Below the pieces are notes generated by a model that was not told where the DNA came from, ran no database searches, and worked only from the letters and a program-made list of their open reading frames with translations. Positions 12,957-59,100 of a DNA stretch of 64,000 bases are shown in pieces. How positions within the stretch are numbered: position 1 is the first letter of the stretch; every line of letters begins with the position of its first letter. This stretch comes from a virus, in the IMG/VR virus record IMGVR_UViG_3300045988_114759; one strand, written 5' to 3'. The position numbers and the translations under genes are program-made.

Positions 12957-13027
12957 TGTCCAATGGTGTAGTGGTAGCACAACAGATTTTGGTTCTGTTA
13001 GCGGAGGTTCGAATCCTCCTTGGATAA
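12957..13027 (+). tRNA. tRNA-Gln (anticodon TTG)
   Basis: Acceptor tgtccaa/ttggata, with the U1-A72 pair typical of bacterial tRNA-Gln. Anticodon stem acaga/tctgt with loop ttTTGgt. T-arm ggagg-TTCGAAT-cctcc. Confidence 0.7.
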
Positions 13028-13097
13028 CAATAAGTTTTTGTGTAAAGTGTTAATTATCTCAGTGTTTGCGGTGTGCGAACATAGCAAACATGAATCT

Positions 13098-13169
13098 GGC
13101 CCATTAGTTTAACGGATAAAACCTTTGAGTCCTAATCAAAAGTTGCCTGTTCGATTCAGGCATGGGCTA
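13098..13169 (+). tRNA. tRNA-Arg (anticodon CCT)
   Basis: Acceptor ggcccat/atgggct. D-arm gttt-aacggat-aaac. Anticodon stem tttga/tcaaa with loop gtCCTaa. Variable loop agtt. T-arm gcctg-TTCGATT-caggc. Confidence 0.75.
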
Positions 13170-13172
13170 CAT

Positions 13173-13244
13173 GGCTTGTTGGATGAGTGGTTTAGTCAGG
13201 GGTCCGCAAAACCTCGTATGGCGGTTCGATTCCGCTACAAGCCT
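13173..13244 (+). tRNA. tRNA with GCA anticodon (Cys-like) and unusual C at position 33
   Basis: Acceptor ggcttgt/acaagcc. D-loop contains GG. Anticodon stem ggggt/acctc with loop ccGCAaa. Variable loop gtat. T-arm ggcgg-TTCGATT-ccgct. C33 in place of the near-universal U33 makes the identity uncertain. Confidence 0.55.
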
Positions 13245-13261
13245 CTAAAAAAAGTAAGACA

Positions 13262-40982: not shown

Positions 40983-41261
40983 ATGGGTAGATCGACAGAG
41001 TACTACAGGACTCATCCCGAAGCCAGGAAGAAAAAGGCTAAAAAAGACAAGGAGATAAATGCCAGACCGGAACAGAAAGCCAAACGCCGGGAACTTGGTC
41101 GTAAAAACTACGAAACGGACAAGAAGAAGGGCAAGGGCTGGAGGAAAGGCAAGGATTGTTCTCATACCAAGAACGGTCTTAGGTATAAATCAGTAAAAGC
41201 TAATAGGGGATCCAAGTCGGATACGAAAGGTGACAAAAATGCAAGAGGAGATAGCAAATAG
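40983..41261 (+). CDS. highly basic small protein (about 45% K/R)
   Basis: 92 aa. Overlaps the start of the DnaB-like gene by 30 nt. Confidence 0.3.
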   Translation: MGRSTEYYRTHPEARKKKAKKDKEINARPEQKAKRRELGRKNYETDKKKGKGWRKGKDCSHTKNGLRYKSVKANRGSKSDTKGDKNARGDSK

Positions 41262-42363
41262 GATAGATATAAGAAGGATATTCAAGACCTCTAAACAGGT
41301 TATGGAAGAGGCGTATGAGAATATCTTAAAATACAGGCGGGGAGAACTTATCCCCGCTAAAACCGGATACGATTATATTGACGAGGCTTTGCTTGGAGGC
41401 ATTTTCCCTCAGCATGCTATTGCCATAGGAGCCCGGCCATCTGTAGGTAAATCGTATGTGGCTCAAAAGATATTGAAAAATGTGATGAATCCGATGATTA
41501 ACCCGCAAGCAGAAGATTATTTTCTTGTCAATTGCGAGTTCGAAATGAATCCTCAAGATCTTCTTCTTCGCAGAATGAGCCAGGATATGAAAAAGCGGGC
41601 TCCTGAAATATTAAGAAGGCAAGATTCTAATACGATAGAAGAGACGAGAATGTTTGAAATCCTTCAAGGTGAAATCAGAAATAATATAATATACATTGAT
41701 GCTCCATGTACGGTAAAAGAGTTTGAGGCGGCTGTGTATCATATAGCTACTAAACATAAAGACAAACGTCTTATAATATTTAAAGTCGATCATATTGCTT
41801 TGATAAAAAGAATGGGATTGGATCCTAAGTCGGCTATAGATGATTTGGTGGCGGTAATAAATGAAGCCAAATTAGTGTATAAAAACATATTTTTTCTCAT
41901 TATATCCCAATTCAACAGAGAAATAGAAGGACGGATAAAAAGTCCCCAAGAGCAGCCTCCGCGTCTTTCTGATTTTTACCAATCTGATACGTTGGGACAA
42001 CTATGTACGTTAATGATAGGCTTGCATAATCCTCGCAGATACGGGCTGGATAAGTATATGATATTTGGAAAAGATTGGTATCAGACTCTTGACCGGTTTA
42101 AAACTGAAAACAAAACATCATTCAGGACAGCCGGACTGGTGTTTCATCATATACTGAAGGTAAGGCAAGTTAGTATGGAAGAGCTTACTAATACAATCCA
42201 CCCAGAGATCCTGCCGGGGCATGGATGGATGTACGGGGAGGGAGGGACGAAGTTCGTGAACCCCAACCAGCCGCCGACGCCGCCCAAGCTCTATACTGTG
42301 GAAAACGTTACGAACAATCAAGATCAAGAACAAGAGGTAAAGGAAGAACAGTCAGTATATTAA
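41230..42363 (+). CDS. DnaB-like replicative helicase (RecA-fold C-terminal domain)
   Basis: Walker A AIGARPSVGKS matches DnaB (AARPSMGKT). Walker B-like IIFKVDHIALIK is present. The N-terminal DnaB domain is reduced. Confidence 0.6.
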   Translation: MTKMQEEIANRIDIRRIFKTSKQVMEEAYENILKYRRGELIPAKTGYDYIDEALLGGIFPQHAIAIGARPSVGKSYVAQKILKNVMNPMINPQAEDYFLVNCEFEMNPQDLLLRRMSQDMKKRAPEILRRQDSNTIEETRMFEILQGEIRNNIIYIDAPCTVKEFEAAVYHIATKHKDKRLIIFKVDHIALIKRMGLDPKSAIDDLVAVINEAKLVYKNIFFLIISQFNREIEGRIKSPQEQPPRLSDFYQSDTLGQLCTLMIGLHNPRRYGLDKYMIFGKDWYQTLDRFKTENKTSFRTAGLVFHHILKVRQVSMEELTNTIHPEILPGHGWMYGEGGTKFVNPNQPPTPPKLYTVENVTNNQDQEQEVKEEQSVY

Positions 42364-43207: not shown

Positions 43208-43921
43208 ATGTACATCAATTTCAGACAACTTGCAGCATCAGACATGACTCCTAATGATCTGGCTAATCTTCTTGCTATAAGACAGAAGGATACGGTTATG
43301 ATCGAAGCCATGCCGGAAGAAGATGCTGGGAGGTATATAGAGCTTGGCCTGGTTGAGAAATTAAAATCAGGCGTGATGAGATTGACCAACAAAGGAACGT
43401 CTTTTGTGAATTATATAGAGACGCCGGAGATGACAGACGAGGTTCTGGAAACGTTGAAGATTATGATAGGAATGTACGAATCATATTCAAAAGACATAGG
43501 TGCCAGCAGAAAAGAAGCAGAATCCAGATTGTGTTGGTTTATGGGTAACACCTCATTCAAGAAAGAGGTCATACTTCAGGTAACGGAATCTTATATAGCA
43601 GAGTCAGGAGATTATACAATGAGCTTATGTAACTTCATATGGAAACCGCCTTCTCAGGCTTTTTCAGTCCATATGAACCTTAAAAATTCAAAGCTCTTTG
43701 ACTTAATAGCTGAAAAATTTAAGATCGCTACCGAACCTTATTTGGAGTCTAAGAAGAATAAGGAAATGGATTGGTTGTTTGCCGTATCTAAATTGCCTAC
43801 GCCGCCAGCTAAAGGCAATCCGGATTATTTGTTTACCGGAAGTTCTGAAACAGACAAAGAGCGATTGAAAAACATAAAAACGTATTTATTTAACAAAATT
43901 AGAAAGCAATGGAAAAAGTAA
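43208..43921 (+). CDS. hypothetical protein
   Basis: 237 aa. Confidence 0.45.
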   Translation: MYINFRQLAASDMTPNDLANLLAIRQKDTVMIEAMPEEDAGRYIELGLVEKLKSGVMRLTNKGTSFVNYIETPEMTDEVLETLKIMIGMYESYSKDIGASRKEAESRLCWFMGNTSFKKEVILQVTESYIAESGDYTMSLCNFIWKPPSQAFSVHMNLKNSKLFDLIAEKFKIATEPYLESKKNKEMDWLFAVSKLPTPPAKGNPDYLFTGSSETDKERLKNIKTYLFNKIRKQWKK

Positions 43922-44150
43922 GAATCAGAAAGATAATAGAGGATATAATTATTACTCAGTTTCTTAATTCGGAAATAGATATAGTTCATGAAGAAGATGT
44001 GACGTTTAAAGAACTTGGATTAGATTCTATTGATCAAATTGAACTGGAAATGATGGTGGAACAAAAAATTCAATATTGTTATTATTGATTATGATATGGA
44101 GACCATCAAAGATATGACTGATCTTGTTTACAAAATAATAACAGAAGGAT

Positions 44151-44645
44151 ATGGGAAGTGACATAATTTTATGCATGGCTTTAATAGCGTCATTTGCTTT
44201 CGTTATACAGTTTTTGTTGTCGATATTAGGATCTGATCTGGATACGGATATTGATATTGATGATGCTTCTGATTTAAGTATGTCTTTGTCGGACATCATA
44301 TCATTCAAGGGCATAACACATTTTATTCTTGGATATAGCTGGACTACCTACTTTTCGGGTTCCCATTTAGTAGGGGTTGTGATAGGGTCGTTTTTCTTTA
44401 TCGTTTTGTTTTACGTATATAAGTTACTTTTTAAGTTAAAGCAAGAAATGGTGTACGAATGTCCGGAAGATTTAAATGGCAGAGAGGTGGAGATAGTGTT
44501 TAGATCAGGGAAGAATCATTATATGGTAAATATTTCGAAAAATGGAAGACAGGAGCAAATGAGAGTAAGATGCTTGTCTGGAAAAACTTACAAAAACGGT
44601 GACAAGGTGAATATAAAATACGAAGAAGGAGAATTAATTATCTAA
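44151..44645 (+). CDS. NfeD-like membrane protein (YqiJ/YuaF family)
   Basis: 164 aa. The N-terminal half has hydrophobic helices (ILCMALIASFAFVIQFLLSIL and VVIGSFFFIVLFYV). The C-terminal ~70 aa has a short beta-rich OB-like tail (EVEIVFRSGKNHYMVNI...GDKVNIKYEEGELII), as in NfeD. Sits directly upstream of the flotillin gene. Confidence 0.6.
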   Translation: MGSDIILCMALIASFAFVIQFLLSILGSDLDTDIDIDDASDLSMSLSDIISFKGITHFILGYSWTTYFSGSHLVGVVIGSFFFIVLFYVYKLLFKLKQEMVYECPEDLNGREVEIVFRSGKNHYMVNISKNGRQEQMRVRCLSGKTYKNGDKVNIKYEEGELII

Positions 44646-44676
44646 TTTTTTTATCAACAATTAAATTTTAAAAGTT

Positions 44677-46470
44677 ATGACAACAATTATGTACGTGTCA
44701 CCCATCTTAGCTGTAGTGATTATTTTGACAATCATCGGAGTCTTATCAAGGTATCGTAGATGTAAGCCTAATCAGGTCTTGGTCGTTTATGGTAAGACAG
44801 GTGGAGAGAAGAAATCGGCGAAATTATATCATGGTGGAGCAGCATTCGTGTTGCCTATTATCCAAAGCTATGATATTTTATCTATGGAGCCTATGCAAAT
44901 AGATTGTAGGCTTACCGGTGCTTTGTCATCTCAGAATATTAGAGTAGATGTGCCTACAACTATTACAGTAGCTATCAGTACAAATCCTGAAATCATGCAA
45001 AATGCAGCAGAAAGACTTTTGGGGATGGATACCGAATCTACTGAAAATCTTATTACAGACATCGTTTACGGTCAGATGCGTTTGATTATTGCCGAAATGA
45101 CAATCGAAAAACTTAATTCTGATAGGGATGAGTTTTTGGATAAGGCAAGAAAAAACATTGATAACGAACTTAATAAATTGGGTCTTTATCTTTTGAACAT
45201 TAACATCAGTGACATCAGAGATGAAGCCGGCTACATCATGAATCTTGGTAAAGAGGCTGAAAGCAAGGCTCTGAACGAAGCACAGGCTAATATCGAAGAA
45301 CAGGAAAAGCTGGGTGCTATTAAGATTGCTGTACAACAGAAGGAAAAAGAAACGGCTGTAGCTAATACCCAAAAAGAGCAAGAGATTCAAATTGCCTATA
45401 CTGAAAAAGAAAAAGAAACGGTAGTAGCTGAAACAAAGAAAGAAAAAGAAGTAGCTTTGGCTTTAACCGATAAAGAAAAACAGATCGGTGTAGCTCAAGC
45501 CGATAGAGATAGGGCTGCGGCTATAGCAAAGACTTTGGCTGACAAGGAATCAGCGATTGCAAGATCTAAGGCGGAACTTGAAGTAAACAAAGCTGAAGCC
45601 GAAAGAATGGAAGAAGTTGGAAAGAATAAAGCTGAAGCTGACAAACAAGCAGCTATAGCAATACAAGACTCTGAAGCTCAGATTAAGAAAGCTGAGGCTG
45701 AGAAAAATGCTTCTGTAGGCTACAACAATGCCCAGAAAGAGGTTGCTGTATCAGAATCAGAATTGCAGGTTATCAAAGCTCAATCAGAAAAGAAAGCCGG
45801 AGAAGAGAAAGTTAAATCGGAAGCGGCTGTGAAAACGGCAAAAGAGCTTGCTGATAAAGAAGTGGAAGAAGCTAAAGCTAAGAAGGTTCAAGCTGCGCTT
45901 AAAGCTGAAAAGATTGTGCCGGCTGAAATTCAGAAGCAGGAGGCTATGTTGCAAGCTGATGCCGAGGCCGAGAAGATCAAACGCCGGGCCGATGCTGAAG
46001 CAGCAGCACATTTGGCAAAAGCAGAGGCGGAAGCAAAAGCTATTCAGATGAAGCTGGAAGCGGAAGCCGAAGGTAAGAAAAAGTCGTTGATGGCAGAGGC
46101 CGACGGATTTAAGGCTATGGTGGAAGCAGCAGAATCCAATCCTCAGATCGCCATCCAGTACAAGATGGTTAATCAGTGGAAAGAAATTGCTGGAGAACAG
46201 GTTAAGGCGTTCGAGCACATCAATCTCGGAAATATCACGGTATTTGACGGCGGTCAGAACAGCACCGGTAATTTCCTTAACAATGTTGTTAAGGCCGTTG
46301 CTCCGGCATTGGGAGTCATTGATCAGCTTCCGATTGCAGATACTTTAAAGAAGTTAAAAGGAGATGACAAAAAAAATAAATACAATGGCCCAAGGTTACA
46401 CTTGGGCCTAATTGAAGAAGCAAAAGCAGCATTTATAGATTTCCTGCCGGCAGGGACAGTGCTTTACTAA
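44677..46470 (+). CDS. flotillin-like SPFH/band-7 protein (FloT/YqiK-like)
   Basis: The N-terminal TM helix plus SPFH core (VLVVYGKTGG...AFVLPIIQSYDILSMEPMQIDC...IRVDVPTTITVAI) fits. It is followed by a long EA-rich coiled-coil (AEAERMEEVGKNKAEADKQAAIAIQDSEAQIKKAEAEKNA) characteristic of flotillins. 597 aa. Confidence 0.8.
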   Translation: MTTIMYVSPILAVVIILTIIGVLSRYRRCKPNQVLVVYGKTGGEKKSAKLYHGGAAFVLPIIQSYDILSMEPMQIDCRLTGALSSQNIRVDVPTTITVAISTNPEIMQNAAERLLGMDTESTENLITDIVYGQMRLIIAEMTIEKLNSDRDEFLDKARKNIDNELNKLGLYLLNINISDIRDEAGYIMNLGKEAESKALNEAQANIEEQEKLGAIKIAVQQKEKETAVANTQKEQEIQIAYTEKEKETVVAETKKEKEVALALTDKEKQIGVAQADRDRAAAIAKTLADKESAIARSKAELEVNKAEAERMEEVGKNKAEADKQAAIAIQDSEAQIKKAEAEKNASVGYNNAQKEVAVSESELQVIKAQSEKKAGEEKVKSEAAVKTAKELADKEVEEAKAKKVQAALKAEKIVPAEIQKQEAMLQADAEAEKIKRRADAEAAAHLAKAEAEAKAIQMKLEAEAEGKKKSLMAEADGFKAMVEAAESNPQIAIQYKMVNQWKEIAGEQVKAFEHINLGNITVFDGGQNSTGNFLNNVVKAVAPALGVIDQLPIADTLKKLKGDDKKNKYNGPRLHLGLIEEAKAAFIDFLPAGTVLY

Positions 46471-46532
46471 TTACAATATTTTTAATATGGATTTTGGACA
46501 AGATTTAGAACCAGAAGAACTGACCAAGCATT

Positions 46533-46892
46533 ATGATCAGTGTTATGGAATTGATTTTGAAACAGAAGAAGAGGAGGATGAAGAGTATGACTGATGAGGA
46601 ATTTGCATTAGATAATAAGAAAAAGGTTGTTGTAAGAAAAAGAATATCCTATTTAAACAAAGGGGATAAAGTGTGGATCGTGTCTTCCGACGGGTATCTG
46701 CTGCACACGGACGTAGTTAGAGCCGACCGAGGCCGATCTTATGTGGATATAGACGGGATACTGTATTGGAAACGTGGATTGGATGGCAAACATCGTAATC
46801 GTAACAACTACATGCAGTTCGCCATGACACCAGAAGATGGTAAGAAGTATGTCGTATATTACCCGGAAGGATTTAAAGACGATAGCTTATGA
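46533..46892 (+). CDS. hypothetical protein
   Basis: 119 aa. Confidence 0.4.
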   Translation: MISVMELILKQKKRRMKSMTDEEFALDNKKKVVVRKRISYLNKGDKVWIVSSDGYLLHTDVVRADRGRSYVDIDGILYWKRGLDGKHRNRNNYMQFAMTPEDGKKYVVYYPEGFKDDSL

Positions 46893-47908
46893 TGGTCCCG
46901 GAAACGCATTTGCTATATAAGGAGTTTAATGGTGTGAAACGTCTTGCCATATCTTATTCCCAGATAGATACGTTTCTTACTTGTCCAATGAAATGGTATA
47001 AGACTTACGTAGAGGGCAAAAGGTCTACAGAAAAACAAGAAGCTACGTCTTATGGTACGGTTATTCATAAGACACTGGAATACTTCTTCAAGAACGGAAG
47101 GCAGCCTTCTGGCAAAGACCTTGGAGAAGCAATAAGTTACTATGCTTACCAAGAAGACATACCTTGGCAATCACCGGAAAATATGATGATAGCCATGAAA
47201 CAATCTGGGGAGCTTCTTGCTTGGATTGTGGATCTGTTTAAAAAAGACGGCAATAGGTTTATGATAGCTGATAGTGATCTTAATCCTTGTGAGAAACTTA
47301 TCAGACACGGCGCTATAGCTGGAGTCGAAGAAGATTTTGTGCTGCCGTACCGCCTTCCTAAGCCAGTTGACATAAATGGGGTAATTCATACCCATGTGTA
47401 CATAGTAGGATCAGTAGACCTTCATCTGGCTATAAAGAGCAAGAACGTAATTCACCATTATGTCATAGATTGGAAATCAGGGAATAAGGTTTTTGATTCT
47501 AAGAAGTTGGAAACGAATTTACAGCATCCTATATATTCGTTTTACATCTATAGAAAATATGGTGGGGTTCTACCAGATATGAACATCTATTTCTTTACCA
47601 GAACCAGGCAGTACCAAAAGGTTAAGGTGGATGAAGAACGTAAAACAAAATCTATAGAGATGCTAAATGACACTTTATCTAAAATGTATGATTTTGAAGA
47701 TAATAGTGTAAAAACATTTCAGGCATACATCCAGGGGGCAGAAGGAGCCAGATATAGCAAGCGGCGTGCCACCCTAAGTCAGCCTGTTTCGCAAAACAAG
47801 CTACCCTGCCCGTCGGCACTGTGTTATTATTGTGACTTTGGATTACATAACAAAAACGAATGCCCTTTCTCTTCGGATTGGGATCCGTCTAAAAAGATAA
47901 AGCGATGA
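46889..47908 (+). CDS. Cas4/RecB-like PD-(D/E)XK exonuclease with Fe-S Cys cluster
   Basis: N-terminal Cys (FLTCPMKWY). Motif II Asp (GSVDLHLA). Motif III IDWKSG. C-terminal C-x4-C-x2-C ... C cluster (CPSALCYYCDFGL...NECPF), typical of the 4Fe-4S site of Cas4/AddB nucleases. Confidence 0.65.
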   Translation: MMVPETHLLYKEFNGVKRLAISYSQIDTFLTCPMKWYKTYVEGKRSTEKQEATSYGTVIHKTLEYFFKNGRQPSGKDLGEAISYYAYQEDIPWQSPENMMIAMKQSGELLAWIVDLFKKDGNRFMIADSDLNPCEKLIRHGAIAGVEEDFVLPYRLPKPVDINGVIHTHVYIVGSVDLHLAIKSKNVIHHYVIDWKSGNKVFDSKKLETNLQHPIYSFYIYRKYGGVLPDMNIYFFTRTRQYQKVKVDEERKTKSIEMLNDTLSKMYDFEDNSVKTFQAYIQGAEGARYSKRRATLSQPVSQNKLPCPSALCYYCDFGLHNKNECPFSSDWDPSKKIKR

Positions 47909-48404: not shown

Positions 48405-48791
48405 ATGGAAAAGAAAGTCACAATCAAAGAAGGGATGGATATTTTTTACAAAAATGCAGGGAAAGATATATGGGTCTATATTGGACTTTTTGGAAATAAA
48501 GTGCTATCCATTTTAAAAAACAAAGGTGTTATTGCATGCGAAAACGATGCTGAATATTGCGTGTTGATGGATGGAGAAGATCATTTTATAAGTATAGCAA
48601 AAGACATGAGTCACGACTATTGTTGTGAGTACGTTGTAGAAAGAGCAGAAGCCTACAGAGACTACCCCTCCAAAGGTACTACATGCAGTGTATGCCTGTT
48701 TGAAGATAATGAGAATAAGGCAAGGGAGATGTTGAAAGAGGCGATAATAGAACTTTCAAAAAATAATATAATAGATTGTGATGGGCTTTGA
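48405..48791 (+). CDS. hypothetical protein
   Basis: 128 aa. Confidence 0.4.
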   Translation: MEKKVTIKEGMDIFYKNAGKDIWVYIGLFGNKVLSILKNKGVIACENDAEYCVLMDGEDHFISIAKDMSHDYCCEYVVERAEAYRDYPSKGTTCSVCLFEDNENKAREMLKEAIIELSKNNIIDCDGL

Positions 48792-50202
48792 ACTTAGACC
48801 TTACCAGAAAGAGGCAGTAGATGCCGGGCTTAAGTTTCTTACAGGAAGATCTAAGAAGCCTGGCATAATCGTAGCCCCATGCGGATGTGGAAAGAGCCTT
48901 CTGATATCCAAGATAGCACATGAAATAAATAGACCGACATTAGTATTACAGCCCTCAAAAGAGATTCTGGAGCAGAATTATGCAAAGGCCGTATCATTCG
49001 GTTCTAAACCTACTATATATTCTGCTTCATGTGGTATAAAGGAGCTGTCGGCTATGACTTATGCAACATTAAAGAGCATAAAGAAAGATGTGGTGAGGTT
49101 GAAGGATATAGGGATAGATACCTTATTGATAGACGAATGTCATTCAGGATATTCTCCTGAAGAAGGTTCTGAATTTATGGAGTTTATGAACAGGTTCCCA
49201 GAGGCGAAGGTACTGGGCTTCACCGCCACTCCCTGCCGCCTCCGAACCTACAGTTCCATGCTGGAAGGAAACTATAGCAAGCTCAATATGCTGACGAAAG
49301 ACGAGCATAACTTCTTCAAGAAAATAGTTCATGTAACTCAAATACAAGAACTAACCTCTCAAGGGTTTTGGTGTCCACTTAAGTACGAACGATGGTCGTT
49401 TGATGAATCGGCTCTGATGTTAAACAGTACCGGGGCTGAATACACCAACGAATCTATTAAAGAAAGTATTGTAAGAAATGGCTTAAACAACTCTATCTAC
49501 AAGCGCCTTCTTCAACTTATGAACGAACGTAAAGCCATTTTGGTCTGTATGGATTCTATCGAATCATGTAATAGAATATCAGAGTTCATGAATGCCAGGA
49601 TGGGAGCCATAACCGGTGTCGTAACATCGCTAACAACCAAAAAGAAAAGAGAGCAAATCATATCAGATTTCAAAGAAGGTAAGTTGAAGGTGGTTTTTAA
49701 TTATTCAACGCTTGCTACCGGATTTGATTTTCCTGAACTTGATTGTGTGATGTTTGGTCGACCAACTTTCTCATATTCAACTTATTACCAAATATTAGGC
49801 CGCGCCGTCCGCATCCATCCTGACAAGAAAGAGGCGCTGATAGTTGATTGCTGCGACAACATGAGGCGTTTCGGTCGGATAGAAGACTTGACAATCGAAC
49901 AATTCCCTTCTAAGGGCTGGTGTATGTTTGCCGGCGATCAACTTCTGTCCAATATAAGGATGGGTGATATTATTACCAAAGACGAGATCCTTCGCCGGGC
50001 AGCCTCGCTTAAATCTGTGAATGGAGATGGTAGGAGAGAGGACGATCTTGACAGTATAATAATGTGGTTTGGAAAATATGAAGGAATTAGATTCAAGGAC
50101 ATACCGGTGTCGTATTTTAGGTTCTTGGCTGAGAATATGGAAGTAAAACCAGGAGATAGAAAAGAAAAGATTATCGAATATTATAATAGGATAAAGGCAT
50201 GA
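48778..50202 (+). CDS. SF2 DEAH-box helicase (type III restriction res-subunit-like / phage DNA helicase)
   Basis: Q-motif LRPYQKEAV. Motif I APCGCGKS. Motif II LLIDECHSG (DECH). Motif III GFTATPCR. Motif VI YQILGRAVR. Confidence 0.75.
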   Translation: MMGFELRPYQKEAVDAGLKFLTGRSKKPGIIVAPCGCGKSLLISKIAHEINRPTLVLQPSKEILEQNYAKAVSFGSKPTIYSASCGIKELSAMTYATLKSIKKDVVRLKDIGIDTLLIDECHSGYSPEEGSEFMEFMNRFPEAKVLGFTATPCRLRTYSSMLEGNYSKLNMLTKDEHNFFKKIVHVTQIQELTSQGFWCPLKYERWSFDESALMLNSTGAEYTNESIKESIVRNGLNNSIYKRLLQLMNERKAILVCMDSIESCNRISEFMNARMGAITGVVTSLTTKKKREQIISDFKEGKLKVVFNYSTLATGFDFPELDCVMFGRPTFSYSTYYQILGRAVRIHPDKKEALIVDCCDNMRRFGRIEDLTIEQFPSKGWCMFAGDQLLSNIRMGDIITKDEILRRAASLKSVNGDGRREDDLDSIIMWFGKYEGIRFKDIPVSYFRFLAENMEVKPGDRKEKIIEYYNRIKA

Positions 50203-54696: not shown

Positions 54697-55140
54697 TTAA
54701 TTGTCGAACGTAACTGTCTCCGATGTTACCACATATTCACCTATACTTCCATACGCTTTAGAATATAATTCAAGTTTTATATGAGCGGAATAGGTGGCAT
54801 ATAAAGTGCCTTGACCCAACCTGGTTATAATAGGTCTGACTATTGATGTTAGGGTCAAATTTTGAAAAGATGTAGGAGAAGGCTCTGGTTCAATATTAGT
54901 TTCAACAAGTTCGCAACTCCATGATGTATCTGAGCCGGTTTCGTAGATCTTATCTACAGGATCTCCTATTATCGTATCTGGGTACTCATGTTGCTCACTG
55001 GTGTAATTCATTACAATAGGATTATCATTGTTTACATTGTATTTTTTACCAGGAGCAGTATATAGTATTTCACGATATGTTACATATTTCTTTTCTTGTT
55101 CTCTCACTGTAAACTGGTCAGGCAAATAAAGACGTATCAA
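54697..55140 (-). CDS. hypothetical (putative virion/tail) protein
   Basis: 147 aa. Last gene of the minus-strand block, downstream of the giant protein. Confidence 0.4.
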   Translation of the reverse strand: MIRLYLPDQFTVREQEKKYVTYREILYTAPGKKYNVNNDNPIVMNYTSEQHEYPDTIIGDPVDKIYETGSDTSWSCELVETNIEPEPSPTSFQNLTLTSIVRPIITRLGQGTLYATYSAHIKLELYSKAYGSIGEYVVTSETVTFDN

Positions 55141-55426
55141 AAAACCTAAAGAAGGAGATTCTACTCTACCTATAATAAGTTTAATGTCATCCTTCTCTAC
55201 AAGCTCTTTCGTAGATTCTGTTTGTTCGCTGATAGTCTCTTTTGTATTAGATGGGACTCCTCCTTGGATACTTATAGAACCCAGACGTTGTTTTATAGAA
55301 AGAAAGGTAAATACACCACTTTGTGGAACGGTACCGACTATTTCATCATCAATGATTACCCCCCCCCTATACAGTTGCTAACTATTTGATATTCATATAT
55401 TTTTAATGATGTTTCAAATCTTCTTC

Positions 55427-55888
55427 TCATATTCCTTTTAAGTAAGTATCAGGTGCAACAAAATCACTTATTGTCTTTATTATATGTATAGTATCTATAA
55501 AATATTTATCAACATCCATAGAAAGTTGAGGACGAAGATCTGAATCGTTTGTCTTATCTGTTATATAGAAATAGTACAGAACATCCTCCAGATAAAATGT
55601 AAGATAAATATCCTCTGTGACATTTCCATTATTGAAATAGCAATTGATGCCAGACCCAGATGGAGTCATATGGCAATCTATACTTTGGGTATCTCCCATA
55701 GTACACACGTAATTGGAACTGGCAATATCAACCGCATATTTTCCAACATTTATACCACCACTTTCCCTCGATCTCGTGGTAAGTATATGAACGGCATTTT
55801 TCCAAGTGGAAAGAGGTGCAGATATACTAACGGCGAAAACGGGAATTATCGTCTGAAATAAATCATATGACAAAAACCTTCTTCTCAT
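55427..55888 (-). CDS. hypothetical (putative virion/tail) protein
   Basis: 153 aa, immediately downstream of the giant ORF on the - strand. Confidence 0.4.
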   Translation of the reverse strand: MRRRFLSYDLFQTIIPVFAVSISAPLSTWKNAVHILTTRSRESGGINVGKYAVDIASSNYVCTMGDTQSIDCHMTPSGSGINCYFNNGNVTEDIYLTFYLEDVLYYFYITDKTNDSDLRPQLSMDVDKYFIDTIHIIKTISDFVAPDTYLKGI

Positions 55889-56105
55889 TATTTTATTTTT
55901 TTTTGCAAGATAGCATTTTTTTCATAACAAAAGAAACCAGTTCTCTATCATCGCTGACTGAGAACTGATAAGAAAACAATTTCAGAAAAAATTAAACCTA
56001 CATAGCCTTTAAAGTAAGAACAAAAAACGTATAGTCTACTCTTTGACAATGCTAAGATAGCATATTAGGGCCATATTGTAGTAATATAAGCCCAATATTC
56101 TTCGT

Positions 56106-59100
56106 CTACTTGTAGCTCACATCATCGTCTCCTTCCGAATCAGGAGTGGCGCCGATGAAGAACATCATTGACTTATTGTTCGTCTGCTGCCACCAGTTAT
56201 AGGCGCGTGCTACGTCTTCCGGCGTCTTAATGTTATACCATTGTTTGATAAACGTCTGTTTAGCGAGTTGTCTAAATAACTTAGACTCACCTTTGTATGT
56301 ACCAGATGTTACTTTATCAAGTGAGTAGTTCCTGAGATCGGTGAGATCCTTCAGTTTCCGTCCCATGACAAATGGGTCATTAATGATATCCACCACATTA
56401 AGCTCCATAATAAACGGCATCTGTGAAGCTATTTCATTTATGGTTCTAAATCCTACATAAGATCCGAATTGAGTAAGCCAGCTTTCCTCGTTTTCATCAT
56501 CATCACGCCATCCGGCAAGAAGCATAGACACGGCCTGCATGATGAGGAACGTGCCGGCATAAACACTGAGGCGTTTAAGATTAGTCTTTTCCACCTCACC
56601 CATCTTATCTTTATTTTCGTTCCAGGCATCTATGATATTTTTCATACCAGGCTCGGAAGCTAAGCTAAATGTTTTAGCTATCATATTCTTTAACGTAATT
56701 GACAGCCCTTCCTCTTCTTGCATTGTCTGGAAATTGAATCCCCTTCTTTTCCACAGACGTTGAGCCGCCAGCACCAGCCATCCTCGGTGGGCAGTCATGA
56801 ACCTGGCTATCCAGTTACGTGATGCGGCGGTTCGGTTTTCTTCATTCAAAGATCCGTTACATATCTGTGACAAGCTACGAACCTGATTACGGGTTATAGC
56901 CATCTGGGTTTCAACTTCCTCAACAGTAACACCCGATCCTGGTTTCACAACCACCTTGCCGTCTACAACATCTACCATACTCCATAAAGTACGATCTCTT
57001 AATGCATCCCATTCTCTTTTTATAGTGCTCTGTTCTTTATTGCGTTCTTTTTCCATCTTGAAATCCTGGAACGTGTAGAACCGACCTTTGTAATAACGAA
57101 CGTTATCCATCGTAGCGATCATAACCTGCGGATCAAGAGGGTAGTTCATGATTTCCATAAAAGCATACATCGGTGAACGCATTAAGGTCCTGGCCGCCCT
57201 ATTATATCCGGCACCATACATACGATTTCGGATATTGAATATCCCCATTCTCTCACCTATGACATATAATTTGCTTTTTCTATCTATGTCTCCGGTTTCT
57301 GCTATACAAGATGGCGCAAGACGTGAAAACTCAGCCGATGCGTATTTAAGGGAATCTTTGCTTATATATTGTCCTACGGCAGATTCCATGATGAGGTTAA
57401 TATGACCTGTCAGAGCGCCGGTAGCTGCCACAAACGGGGACAGCGCTAAGTTCATGACCGACATAAATCTTTCAACGGCCATCATAATTCTTGTAAGGTC
57501 TACCGTATATCCTCCGATGTTCACTGTAAGTTTTTTGGTGTTCATCCTAATGCCATAATAATGATCGTTGAAGAAGTCCCTGAACATCTGATATGCTTGG
57601 GTTGCTTCAGCCTTCTTACCGCCTTCAAATTGTTTGTTCAGCAACATCTGCTCCAGTCCTTGAGCGAGCTCTATAGACTTCTGCTTTTCGTTGTATAACG
57701 ATGACTGCATCATAAGCATCGAATAAGAGTAGCCAAAATCGTGAGATACATCATCTTGGTTCTCCAATTCATATATGTAGTATTTAGGTATAGACCTAAG
57801 TCTGTCTTCCGGATCATACACTTCCCCTTGTCTGGTTTTACCGTATAGAGAATCGTCTACTCTGTCCAGGCACAGATCTGATACAAAATTACGAACCGTA
57901 TTTTTGAAGTTAATACCCAATCCTTCTATACGTTCTATATCTTGTTTTGATATCTGTGGAATAGCATACAGGTTCGGGCTCTGCTCTTTGTATAGATCAA
58001 GGGATTGTCTTTTTATTTCCTTGAGTTTTTGAATCATATTCCACTGCTCTACGTTTTTAGTAGCAACTTCATTACCGTCAGCATCATACTTGATACCAAA
58101 GTCATTGAAATACGATTCATCACGATACAGGCTTTTCTTAGGCATGCGATGACCATACCCATGATCTTTTACATAATCAGGATTACGGCCGCTATTTTCG
58201 GCTTCAGATTCAGCCACCCATGCCCTTGCAGGATCGAAAGACAGGTATGATATGTCCATGCCATAATCTTGGGTGGATGTACCGTTTTGTACGTCCTTAA
58301 CCATCTGCGCTACATCTATCTCACCTCGACCGATTTTGTCGATCATAGCCGCATATCCGGTAGGCGCCATGCGTTTATAGTACGAAAAGACCTGGCTCCT
58401 GGCAAATTCATTAACAATAGCATTAGCTTCTTCTATGCCCGCTTTTATGTCAGCTTCTATACCCTCTTCCCTTGTATTATTTAAAAATAAGCTGGCCATC
58501 TTAGCATTAACAGCATTCCTAAAATCTCTACCGTCTAATTCTTTGCTTATACCAAGCTTTTCTGACAGGTAGTTGGTTTCAGATACGGTAAACAGATATC
58601 GGTTATCAGCAGCCTTAAACAGCTTATCCCTTAAAGCCTGAATCCTTTTTGCTTTCTTCGCCGTAGTATGACGTTGTACGAACTTCCATTCTACTTCCTT
58701 GGAGTCAGCAAGAGCATTTAAATAAGACTGATTTACTTCGTTTTCGGCCTTACTGCTTTTAGTAAGGTACTTATCAATATCTTCAAGACCCACCATCTTA
58801 GCATAATCTATTAAGATAGCGTAATCGGCTTCAATAGCTTCAGATGCAGCCCTAAAAGCATCTCTTTCAGATGAGGTAAATGTCGCTTCGTTAATCTCTC
58901 CGATATCAGCCACATCTCGGTTGTTTCCGATTATTTCCTTGATAATGGCCTTATTTTTTTCTATATCTTTTACAATCGAATCCACGTCAGTCGCATCTCT
59001 ATCACTTGTCGTAGAACTAATGATATCATGCGCCATTTTAAGATACGAAGCCTTGTTATTTGATTCGGTACGTGCCGACTGCTCCGATTCTATGTCATTC

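Follow-up and report, generated by a model that had tools for sequence, protein, structure and literature searches.

Why would a gut phage carry what appears to be a complete bacterial membrane-scaffold operon? The question is raised by two adjacent genes at positions 44151-46470, on the plus strand of a 64,000-nucleotide (nt) stretch of viral DNA (IMG/VR record IMGVR_UViG_3300045988_114759; hereafter the window). We refer to the two open reading frames as ORF1 and ORF2 and to the pair as the cassette. An earlier note on this DNA had described them as an NfeD-type membrane protein and a flotillin, paired in the manner of YuaF-FloT or YqiJ-YqiK, within a phage replication and recombination module. 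Both ORFs are present exactly as described, and the core of that reading is supported. We hold the identity and the origin of the two genes with high confidence, and lean towards regarding the cassette as a captured host membrane-scaffold operon, a conditionally useful accessory with a membrane role during infection.

Over 10 kb around the cassette, the window is 94.7% identical at the nt level to OR575929, a complete linear 151-kb genome whose record title reads 'csAssE-Sib' and which the literature describes as crAssE-Sib, an epsilon crAss-like phage (PMC11054128). GenBank labels the ORF1 and ORF2 counterparts in OR575929 'transmembrane protein' and 'flotillin family protein', respectively. 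The flotillin gene itself is therefore not new, as this annotation predates our analysis; the text of the crAssE-Sib paper (PMC11054128) mentions neither flotillin nor SPFH nor membrane. What is new here is a complete operon of an NfeD-like gene and a flotillin gene in a crAss-like phage, under strong constraint and yet recurrently losing the flotillin.

The counts given below come from two viral samples and one cellular sample. The first viral sample comprises 80 IMG/VR contigs of up to 155 kb, selected by flotillin similarity (93-98% amino acid (aa) identity). As this choice depends on the flotillin, we re-sampled via a neighbouring 237-aa gene (orf237) to obtain the second. The cellular sample consists of the best 80 Bacteroidales genome matches to the flotillin. 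Locus searches used the flotillin alignment; the 74-member ORF1 alignment has no conserved stretch.

ORF2 (44677..46470, plus strand) starts 31 nt after ORF1 and encodes a flotillin. Its N-terminus carries a predicted membrane anchor (approximately residues 5-25; 44689..44751), the sole hydrophobic segment of the protein in a hydropathy plot. The SPFH core that the earlier note had proposed is recovered by Pfam as Band_7 (PF01145; residues 30-211; 44764..45309) with an E-value of 2.8e-25 and 89.8 bits against a cutoff of 23.6, and the C-terminal Flot domain (PF15975; residues 450-559; 46024..46353) is matched at 2e-9, with 38 bits against a cutoff of 27. The NCBIfam FloT model (NF058507) gives a partial match to residues 10-275 (1.4e-42, 146 bits, cutoff 700), and a PHROGs search returned no match for the flotillin. 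On these profile matches, ORF2 is classed as a member of the flotillin family and not as the FloT equivalog. The protein is 597 aa long in the window. The usual form, found in 76 of 81 related loci, has 566 aa and ends in ...KGDDKK; the window has a run of eight A (46369..46376) where its relatives have six, so that the flotillin reading frame runs past the usual TAA stop and continues into that of a small ORF downstream. The last 31 residues are thus a read-through peculiar to this window.

Between the SPFH and Flot domains lies a compositionally distinct region (residues ~215-450; 45319..46026) that is rich in Ala (22%), Glu (17%) and Lys (17%) and contains only seven Pro or Gly residues between 215 and 450. 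The long EA-repeat coiled coil proposed for this region stands as far as composition is concerned; a crude heptad test found no canonical coiled-coil register over most of its length. The region varies in length among genomes, with large indels between variants. It also contains an A-rich imperfect 27-nt repeat at 45401-45456, including an A11 run (detected with Tandem Repeats Finder), and truncated flotillin alleles (257 and 276 aa) terminate just past this repeat. The 257-aa allele (locus L178) is an internal deletion from about 45366. The 276-aa allele retains full-length DNA, which makes slippage in the A11 run a candidate cause of frameshifts.

ORF1 (44151..44645, plus strand) encodes a protein of 164 aa that we read as a short-form NfeD-like membrane protein. 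Hydropathy and an AlphaFold2 model place predicted helices at residues 2-25, 52-69 and 72-101 (44154..44453). An acidic D-x-D-x-D loop at residues 28-46 (nt 44232-44288) is conserved in the family, and the C-terminal part (residues 110-164; 44478..44642) is modelled as an oligonucleotide/oligosaccharide-binding (OB) fold domain of NfeD type. An exhaustive hidden Markov model search recovers a family of 405 representative clusters of ~160-180 aa with one plan: an N-terminal transmembrane (TM) helix, the DxDxD loop, a 'SFKG..HF' motif, two further TM helices and the C-terminal domain. Both motifs are conserved across 74 family members. In the related phage loci of the two samples the gene is intact in 81/81 and 77/78, with a product of 164 or 162 aa.

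Profile libraries say little about this protein. ORF1 has no NfeD or YqiJ match in Pfam even at E<=10 and nothing meaningful in NCBIfam, PHROG or PADLOC. Its close relatives carry no NfeD or YqiJ domain, and a PDB profile search with the seven closest relatives was empty. Pfam NfeD (PF01957) is matched by only two of the 74 family members, at best with 6e-5. The structural comparison points the other way. Modelled alone from the 74-sequence alignment, the C-terminal domain reaches a predicted local distance difference test (pLDDT) score of 93.8 and is predicted to form a five-stranded OB fold whose best structural matches are NfeD domains. In a viral structure library, the best non-self match is a 175-aa protein (31% identical, E 7e-5, TM-score 0.83) that UniProt names 'NfeD-like C-terminal domain-containing protein'. 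In PDB, the family profile has a single non-TM match, to YuaF, which spans the whole domain (E 0.29), and hhalign relates the family to YuaF with P 1.2e-4. Like a short-form NfeD protein, ORF1 has an N-terminal multi-pass membrane region and lacks a protease domain, and two divergent members of its family also lie in an operon with an SPFH gene.

The NfeD assignment of the earlier note thus fails in Pfam, the test it had named, and holds in fold, architecture and conserved operon position. Taking together the modelled C-terminal fold, the weak sequence links, the architecture and the operon position, we consider ORF1, with a small residual doubt, to be NfeD-like, of the short form and missed by present profile libraries. 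We rate it improbable that ORF1 is unrelated to NfeD, a small membrane protein whose OB fold is generic and which merely neighbours a flotillin.

The nearest cellular relatives of the phage flotillin are chromosomal flotillins of Bacteroides, Parabacteroides, Prevotella, Phocaeicola and their relatives (60-66% identity, near full length). In 79 of the 80 Bacteroidales loci, a homolog of ORF1 of ~165 aa (31-41% identity) lies directly upstream of the flotillin gene, and the lone exception is cut by a contig end. Public sources list the Bacteroides partner as 'hypothetical protein' or 'Transmembrane protein' and assign it no Pfam domain, and the searched literature holds nothing on the Bacteroides flotillin operon. 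The operon of Bacteroides xylanisolvens XB1A (locus L118, 5471-5968 and 6001-7641) has the gene order of the phage and a short intergenic gap; its partner protein of 165 aa is 35% identical to the phage protein of 164 aa (E 3e-30), and its flotillin is 64% identical to that of the phage over the full length. The Flot domain is the most host-like portion of the phage flotillin.

The two proteins have diverged to different degrees, as they have within bacteria. Where two bacterial flotillins share ~70% identity, their partners share 39-48%. Between phage and bacteria the values are 68% for the flotillin and 38.5% for the partner, on the same trend, and so the unequal divergence is no argument against joint capture. 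The sequence comparisons are consistent with capture of the pair together from a Bacteroidales two-gene operon. The phage copies have diverged and are about equidistant from all sampled Bacteroidales genera, among which the flotillins themselves have a median identity of 87%. This equidistance implies that the capture is old, or that evolution was faster afterwards, or that the donor lineage is unsampled.

We had also suspected a second, independent capture in a group of ~36-40% identity (L002, L004, MT836799), and rejected it when no relative was found on a viral contig. The record MT836799.1 (locus L254, 'UNVERIFIED: Bacteriophage sp.', 8.7 kb) has an ORF1-family gene beside bacterial housekeeping genes, namely those for an EPSP-synthase-family enzyme, a GNAT acetyltransferase, a cytidine/tRNA deaminase and a histidine phosphatase; one of its ORFs does match a model of phage tail assembly chaperones. 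As a whole, the record looks bacterial, with a phage label given in error.

Given so clear a host origin, the cassette could be an artefact of host contamination, chimeric assembly or insertion in the flank of a prophage. Several observations make this next to impossible. Besides the complete 151-kb genome, over 130 viral contigs, the longest of 155 kb, carry the cassette, and it occupies the same position in independent ENA and Logan assemblies. Even with the 80 best genome matches, flotillin identity is just 60-66%. Its composition is phage-like: GC content at third codon positions (GC3) is 0.37, compared with 0.39-0.40 in the phage neighbours and 0.42-0.48 in the B. xylanisolvens operon, and such an ameliorated GC3 implies long residence in the phage. 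We therefore exclude contamination, chimerism and a prophage flank on the grounds of recurrence in phage genomes, divergence from hosts and phage-like composition. The earlier note had allowed that the segment might be a host-derived insertion. On the complete genome, the viral contigs, the phage-like GC, the low cellular identity and the purifying selection described below, the cassette is host-derived in origin and phage-intrinsic now.

The genomic setting agrees with this. Profile searches against Pfam and PHROG find a DnaB_C helicase upstream (41230-42363) and a PD-(D/E)XK nuclease with a C-terminal Cys cluster downstream (46889-47908), in agreement with the reported placement between a DnaB-like helicase and a Cas4-like nuclease. 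Cassette and replication/recombination genes lie on the same strand and are tightly packed or overlapping. Unlike the Bacteroidales operon, the cassette has a phage-like GC3, neighbours replication genes and an acyl carrier protein (ACP) gene instead of host genes, and includes a flotillin whose presence varies between genomes. Related phages carry the pair: the 80 IMG/VR contigs share it in the same gene order with a second phage lineage, in which the flotillin is 83% identical and the ORF1 counterpart has 166-169 aa. Synteny in this lineage is identical (DnaB, a 200-aa ORF, a 237-aa ORF, ACP, NfeD-like, flotillin, nuclease and helicase). With its closest homologues in cells of the host clade and a stable place in phage genomes, the cassette has the features of host-derived accessory genes.

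Is the cassette maintained by selection? We estimated the ratio of nonsynonymous to synonymous divergence (dN/dS) among phage alleles by pairwise Nei-Gojobori comparison, which is approximate and tree-unaware, yet the signal is large. Values of 0.054 for ORF1 and 0.035 for ORF2 lie close to those of DnaB (0.045) and the nuclease (0.052). Within ORF2, the SPFH part (residues 1-215) and the Flot domain have values of 0.015 and 0.013, respectively, and the EA-rich region 0.056. Thus, both cassette genes are under strong purifying selection in the phage.

The flotillin is nevertheless often missing. Among the 76 loci of the orf237-chosen sample that span the region, 48 have an intact flotillin and two carry a small in-frame indel. 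No flotillin DNA is left in 16, the gene is partly deleted in three, and in seven full-length DNA is interrupted by a premature stop or a frameshift, although some frameshift alleles may be assembly errors at A-runs. Counting the in-frame indels as intact (50/76), an intact flotillin is missing in 26/76 (34%). The flanking genes are intact wherever they are covered (DnaB 78/78, orf200 79/79, orf237 80/80, nuclease 76/76), and ORF1, intact in 77/78 loci of this sample, is broken only where a flotillin deletion reaches it.

Loss most commonly takes the form of a gene-sized excision that starts just past the ORF1 stop (~44648) and ends at ~46480, at AT-rich microhomology and with at least three different left junctions. 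Further breakpoints lie at 44524->46544, 44755->46544, 44172->46017, 45366->46384 and 44491->46117, and a 75%-identical relative has one at 44485->45958; in all, there are at least eight different flotillin breakpoints. Two of these (44491->46117 and 44485->45958) create in-frame chimeras of the ORF1 N-terminus with the flotillin C-terminus, and ORF1/flotillin chimeras recur in independent ENA and Logan assemblies. The flotillin is thus an accessory gene, not an essential one, and has been lost or broken many times independently: it is dispensable, with 26 of 76 genomes lacking an intact copy, yet constrained at a dN/dS of 0.035 among intact alleles. A second small presence/absence polymorphism, an extra segment of ~360 bp near 46545 (at the start of a 119-aa ORF, 46533-46892), is seen in about 14-16 related genomes, independently of flotillin presence.

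In the flotillin-less genomes ORF1 remains intact, with 13 alleles, a dS of 0.17 and a dN/dS of 0.086. Its retention and constraint without a phage flotillin suggest that it can work with the flotillin of the host.

The cassette differs in several respects from the SPFH systems described so far. Compared with yuaF-floT of Bacillus subtilis, the phage flotillin falls far under the FloT equivalog cutoff (146 vs 700 bits), YuaF and ORF1 share only about 19% sequence identity, and the cassette is carried by a phage of a Gram-negative host. In QmcA-YbbJ of Escherichia coli, QmcA is a stomatin-type SPFH protein, whereas the phage partner is a flotillin. ORF1 lacks the Pfam match that would tie it to YqiJ of YqiJ-YqiK. 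The Pyrococcus horikoshii pair PH1511/PH1510 (STOPP; 3wwv, 2exd) combines a stomatin (PH1511) with a long NfeD protease (PH1510), while ORF1 is without the ClpP-like domain and has a flotillin as its partner.

Among phages, SPFH ORFs have been listed in the T4-like phages 44RR, Aeh1 and RB43 since 2006 (PMC1524935), and a 2026 paper on Gibbsiella phage GIB1 states that the reason for an SPFH gene in a phage 'remains unclear' (PMC13239085). Relatives of ORF2 are encoded in only nine of 50,697 phage records. Vibrio phage KIT04 (LC487410) and the gut phage MT835492 encode full-length flotillins that are 26-28% identical to ORF2. In KIT04 the flotillin is preceded without a gap by an 82-aa protein (locus L249, 2189-2437) that has TM segments only, a short acidic 'DLDD' and no OB domain; it resembles the membrane half of ORF1. 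In MT835492 the flotillin has no NfeD-like neighbour. Unlike the present cassette, none of the other phage SPFH ORFs is a recognisable complete copy of a host operon. The cassette is not a new kind of system and belongs with the phage-borne, host-derived SPFH genes. We found no papers on crAss-like phages and flotillin in the searched literature, which agrees with the earlier note, whose author was aware of no described function for such a phage cassette.

What might the cassette do? The behaviour of FloT/YuaF and of HflK/C forms the background of a model in which SPFH proteins build membrane cages. A cage structure exists for QmcA-YbbJ (PDB 8z5g; Tan et al. 2024), as cited in PMC12624060. By analogy, we propose that an epsilon crAss-like gut phage captured a Bacteroidales NfeD-like and flotillin operon long ago, and the cassette now forms part of the co-directional replication/recombination array of the phage; in keeping with this position, we assume that it is transcribed with the replication genes, as we detect no promoter or terminator of its own. 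The flotillin would be anchored in the cytoplasmic membrane by its N-terminal hydrophobic segment, and oligomers formed through its Ala/Glu-rich helices and Flot domain would build a large cage enclosing a patch of membrane. Within this patch would lie the three TM helices of the NfeD-like protein, whose cytoplasmic OB domain would bind the SPFH protein. The phage flotillin may also co-assemble with that of the host into mixed cages, which is plausible because the two are 64-69% identical, with the highest identity in the oligomerising C-terminal region. In this way the cassette might reinforce or reorganise the host inner membrane during phage replication, the most economical of the roles considered; we put this specific physiological role forward tentatively and rate it, in absolute terms, as being on the unlikely side.

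Several points weigh against the reading that we favour. Scans for sigma-70/Bacteroides-type promoters and for terminators near the cassette are at chance level, leaving it undefined as a unit of its own. A single IMG dataset supplied many of the viral loci, and these may be only partly independent. The constraint on ORF1 in flotillin-less genomes could stem partly from recombination with flotillin-bearing genomes or from recent deletions, and the high loss rate could indicate that the phage gains little from the flotillin. Co-assembly with the host flotillin is a conjecture, and the functional role as a whole is one that we only infer, from analogy with other SPFH proteins.

Other explanations share part of this evidence. 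The cassette, or the flotillin alone, could be a module for conflicts with other phages or with the host, acting in superinfection exclusion at the membrane or buffering the membrane against membrane-damaging abortive-infection effectors, and its presence or absence would then reflect host-strain-specific or frequency-dependent selection. The gene-specific, recurrent loss in near-identical genomes (26/76 against none for the flanking genes), the strong constraint on intact alleles, a pattern typical of conditionally useful accessory genes, and the predicted membrane location of the proteins all fit. We nonetheless consider it unlikely, as neither protein matches a PADLOC defence model (PADLOC-DB, E<=1), both are close to housekeeping orthologues of the host and give no hint of diversifying selection (dN/dS 0.015-0.056), and the searched literature contains no SPFH protein in exclusion or anti-defence. 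If the flotillin were instead a decaying passenger, captured by chance, contributing nothing at present and on its way out, we would understand why deletions, frameshifts and nonsense mutations have left a third of genomes with no intact flotillin, and why in the window the ACP gene is frameshifted and the flotillin stop bypassed. Decay is hard to reconcile with the dN/dS of the flotillin, which is 0.035 for the whole gene, falls to 0.013-0.015 in the SPFH and Flot domains and is no higher than that of the replicative helicase. Nor does decay fit the identical synteny kept in a second lineage, where flotillin identity is down to 83%, or the GC3 ameliorated to phage values, which implies long residence; we rate this explanation as improbable.

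More improbable still is a replication-factory anchor, in which a flotillin scaffold would tether the replisome or recombination machinery to the membrane. The location within the replication/recombination module, among same-strand and packed or overlapping genes, is what speaks for it. The replication genes, however, are intact in all sampled genomes, including the 34% in which the flotillin is broken or absent; the flotillin is therefore dispensable for replication, and neither protein gives a hint of DNA or replisome binding.

A further, speculative reading, which we think rather improbable, starts from the long, poorly lytic infections that are typical of crAss-like phages. The NfeD-like protein might be the real effector and take over flotillin cages, whether those of the phage or the 64-69% identical ones of the host. 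Such cages might keep the membrane of the infected cell intact or blunt membrane-targeting abortive-infection effectors. The phage flotillin might then be an optional 'booster' whose loss or retention tracks the host strains met. If true, a viral SPFH-NfeD system would for the first time have a defined role. Between this proposal and the alternatives above, a captured host membrane-scaffold operon kept as a conditionally useful accessory remains the reading that we prefer.

Small genes and elements adjoin the cassette. An ACP-like gene (43909..44150, plus strand; Pfam PP-binding 3e-4, PHROG 5934) with a DSI serine motif precedes ORF1. In relatives it overlaps the ORF1 start by 11 nt and encodes 83 aa in 74/80 loci, and the second lineage has an 88-aa version in the same arrangement. 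In the window it is frameshifted by one extra A in an A-run (~44063-44068), which leaves a 59-aa ORF (43909-44088). Its dN/dS of 0.36 is far above that of its neighbours. ACP, NfeD-like protein and flotillin may form a conserved lipid/membrane trio. At the other end, a small ORF over the usual flotillin stop (46364-46520; 50 aa in crAssE-Sib, 52 aa in the second lineage) encodes a predicted C-terminal TM helix and is removed along with the flotillin in clean excisions. We rejected this ORF as a third cassette gene, since its frame varies (10-nt and 1-nt indels) and it has no Bacteroides equivalent. Inside this ORF, a perfect 8-bp GC-rich hairpin at 46387-46408, GGCCCAAGGTTACACTTGGGCC, is conserved in 64/80 loci; no T-tract follows it on the plus strand.

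Elsewhere in the window, three tRNA genes are clustered on the plus strand at 12957-13245, Gln(TTG), Arg(CCT) and Cys(GCA); six tRNAs are reported for the whole crAssE-Sib genome (PMC11054128). GC skew and AT skew turn from positive to negative at about 55000-57000, and the switch near 55-56 kb suggests a change of coding strand and hence a module boundary. A superfamily-2 helicase of 474 aa (48778-50202) reads as 790 aa in four related loci, suggesting a fusion with the following gene in those four genomes. In the second lineage, the slot downstream of a dGTP diphosphohydrolase-like gene holds an IS605 OrfB / Cas12f-like TnpB in one genome (locus L251, 13180-13707) and a NAMPT/NAPRTase gene in another (locus L252, 12880-13707), and is a variable accessory site.

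crAss-like phages are the dominant phage group of the human gut, and bacterial flotillins and their NfeD partners are widespread while their function is poorly defined. Here, a crAss-like phage carries a complete, selectively maintained copy of the flotillin operon of its hosts. Through the phage genes, the unannotated 165-aa 'hypothetical protein' upstream of Bacteroidales flotillins (79/80 loci) is recognised as an NfeD-like partner. The many independent natural knock-outs of the phage flotillin, in which the phage NfeD-like gene is kept unless the deletion reaches it, amount to a ready-made genetic experiment: comparison of variants with and without the flotillin could reveal the role of the scaffold in cells under membrane stress, and the cassette could reveal how a phage manipulates the inner membrane of Bacteroides.

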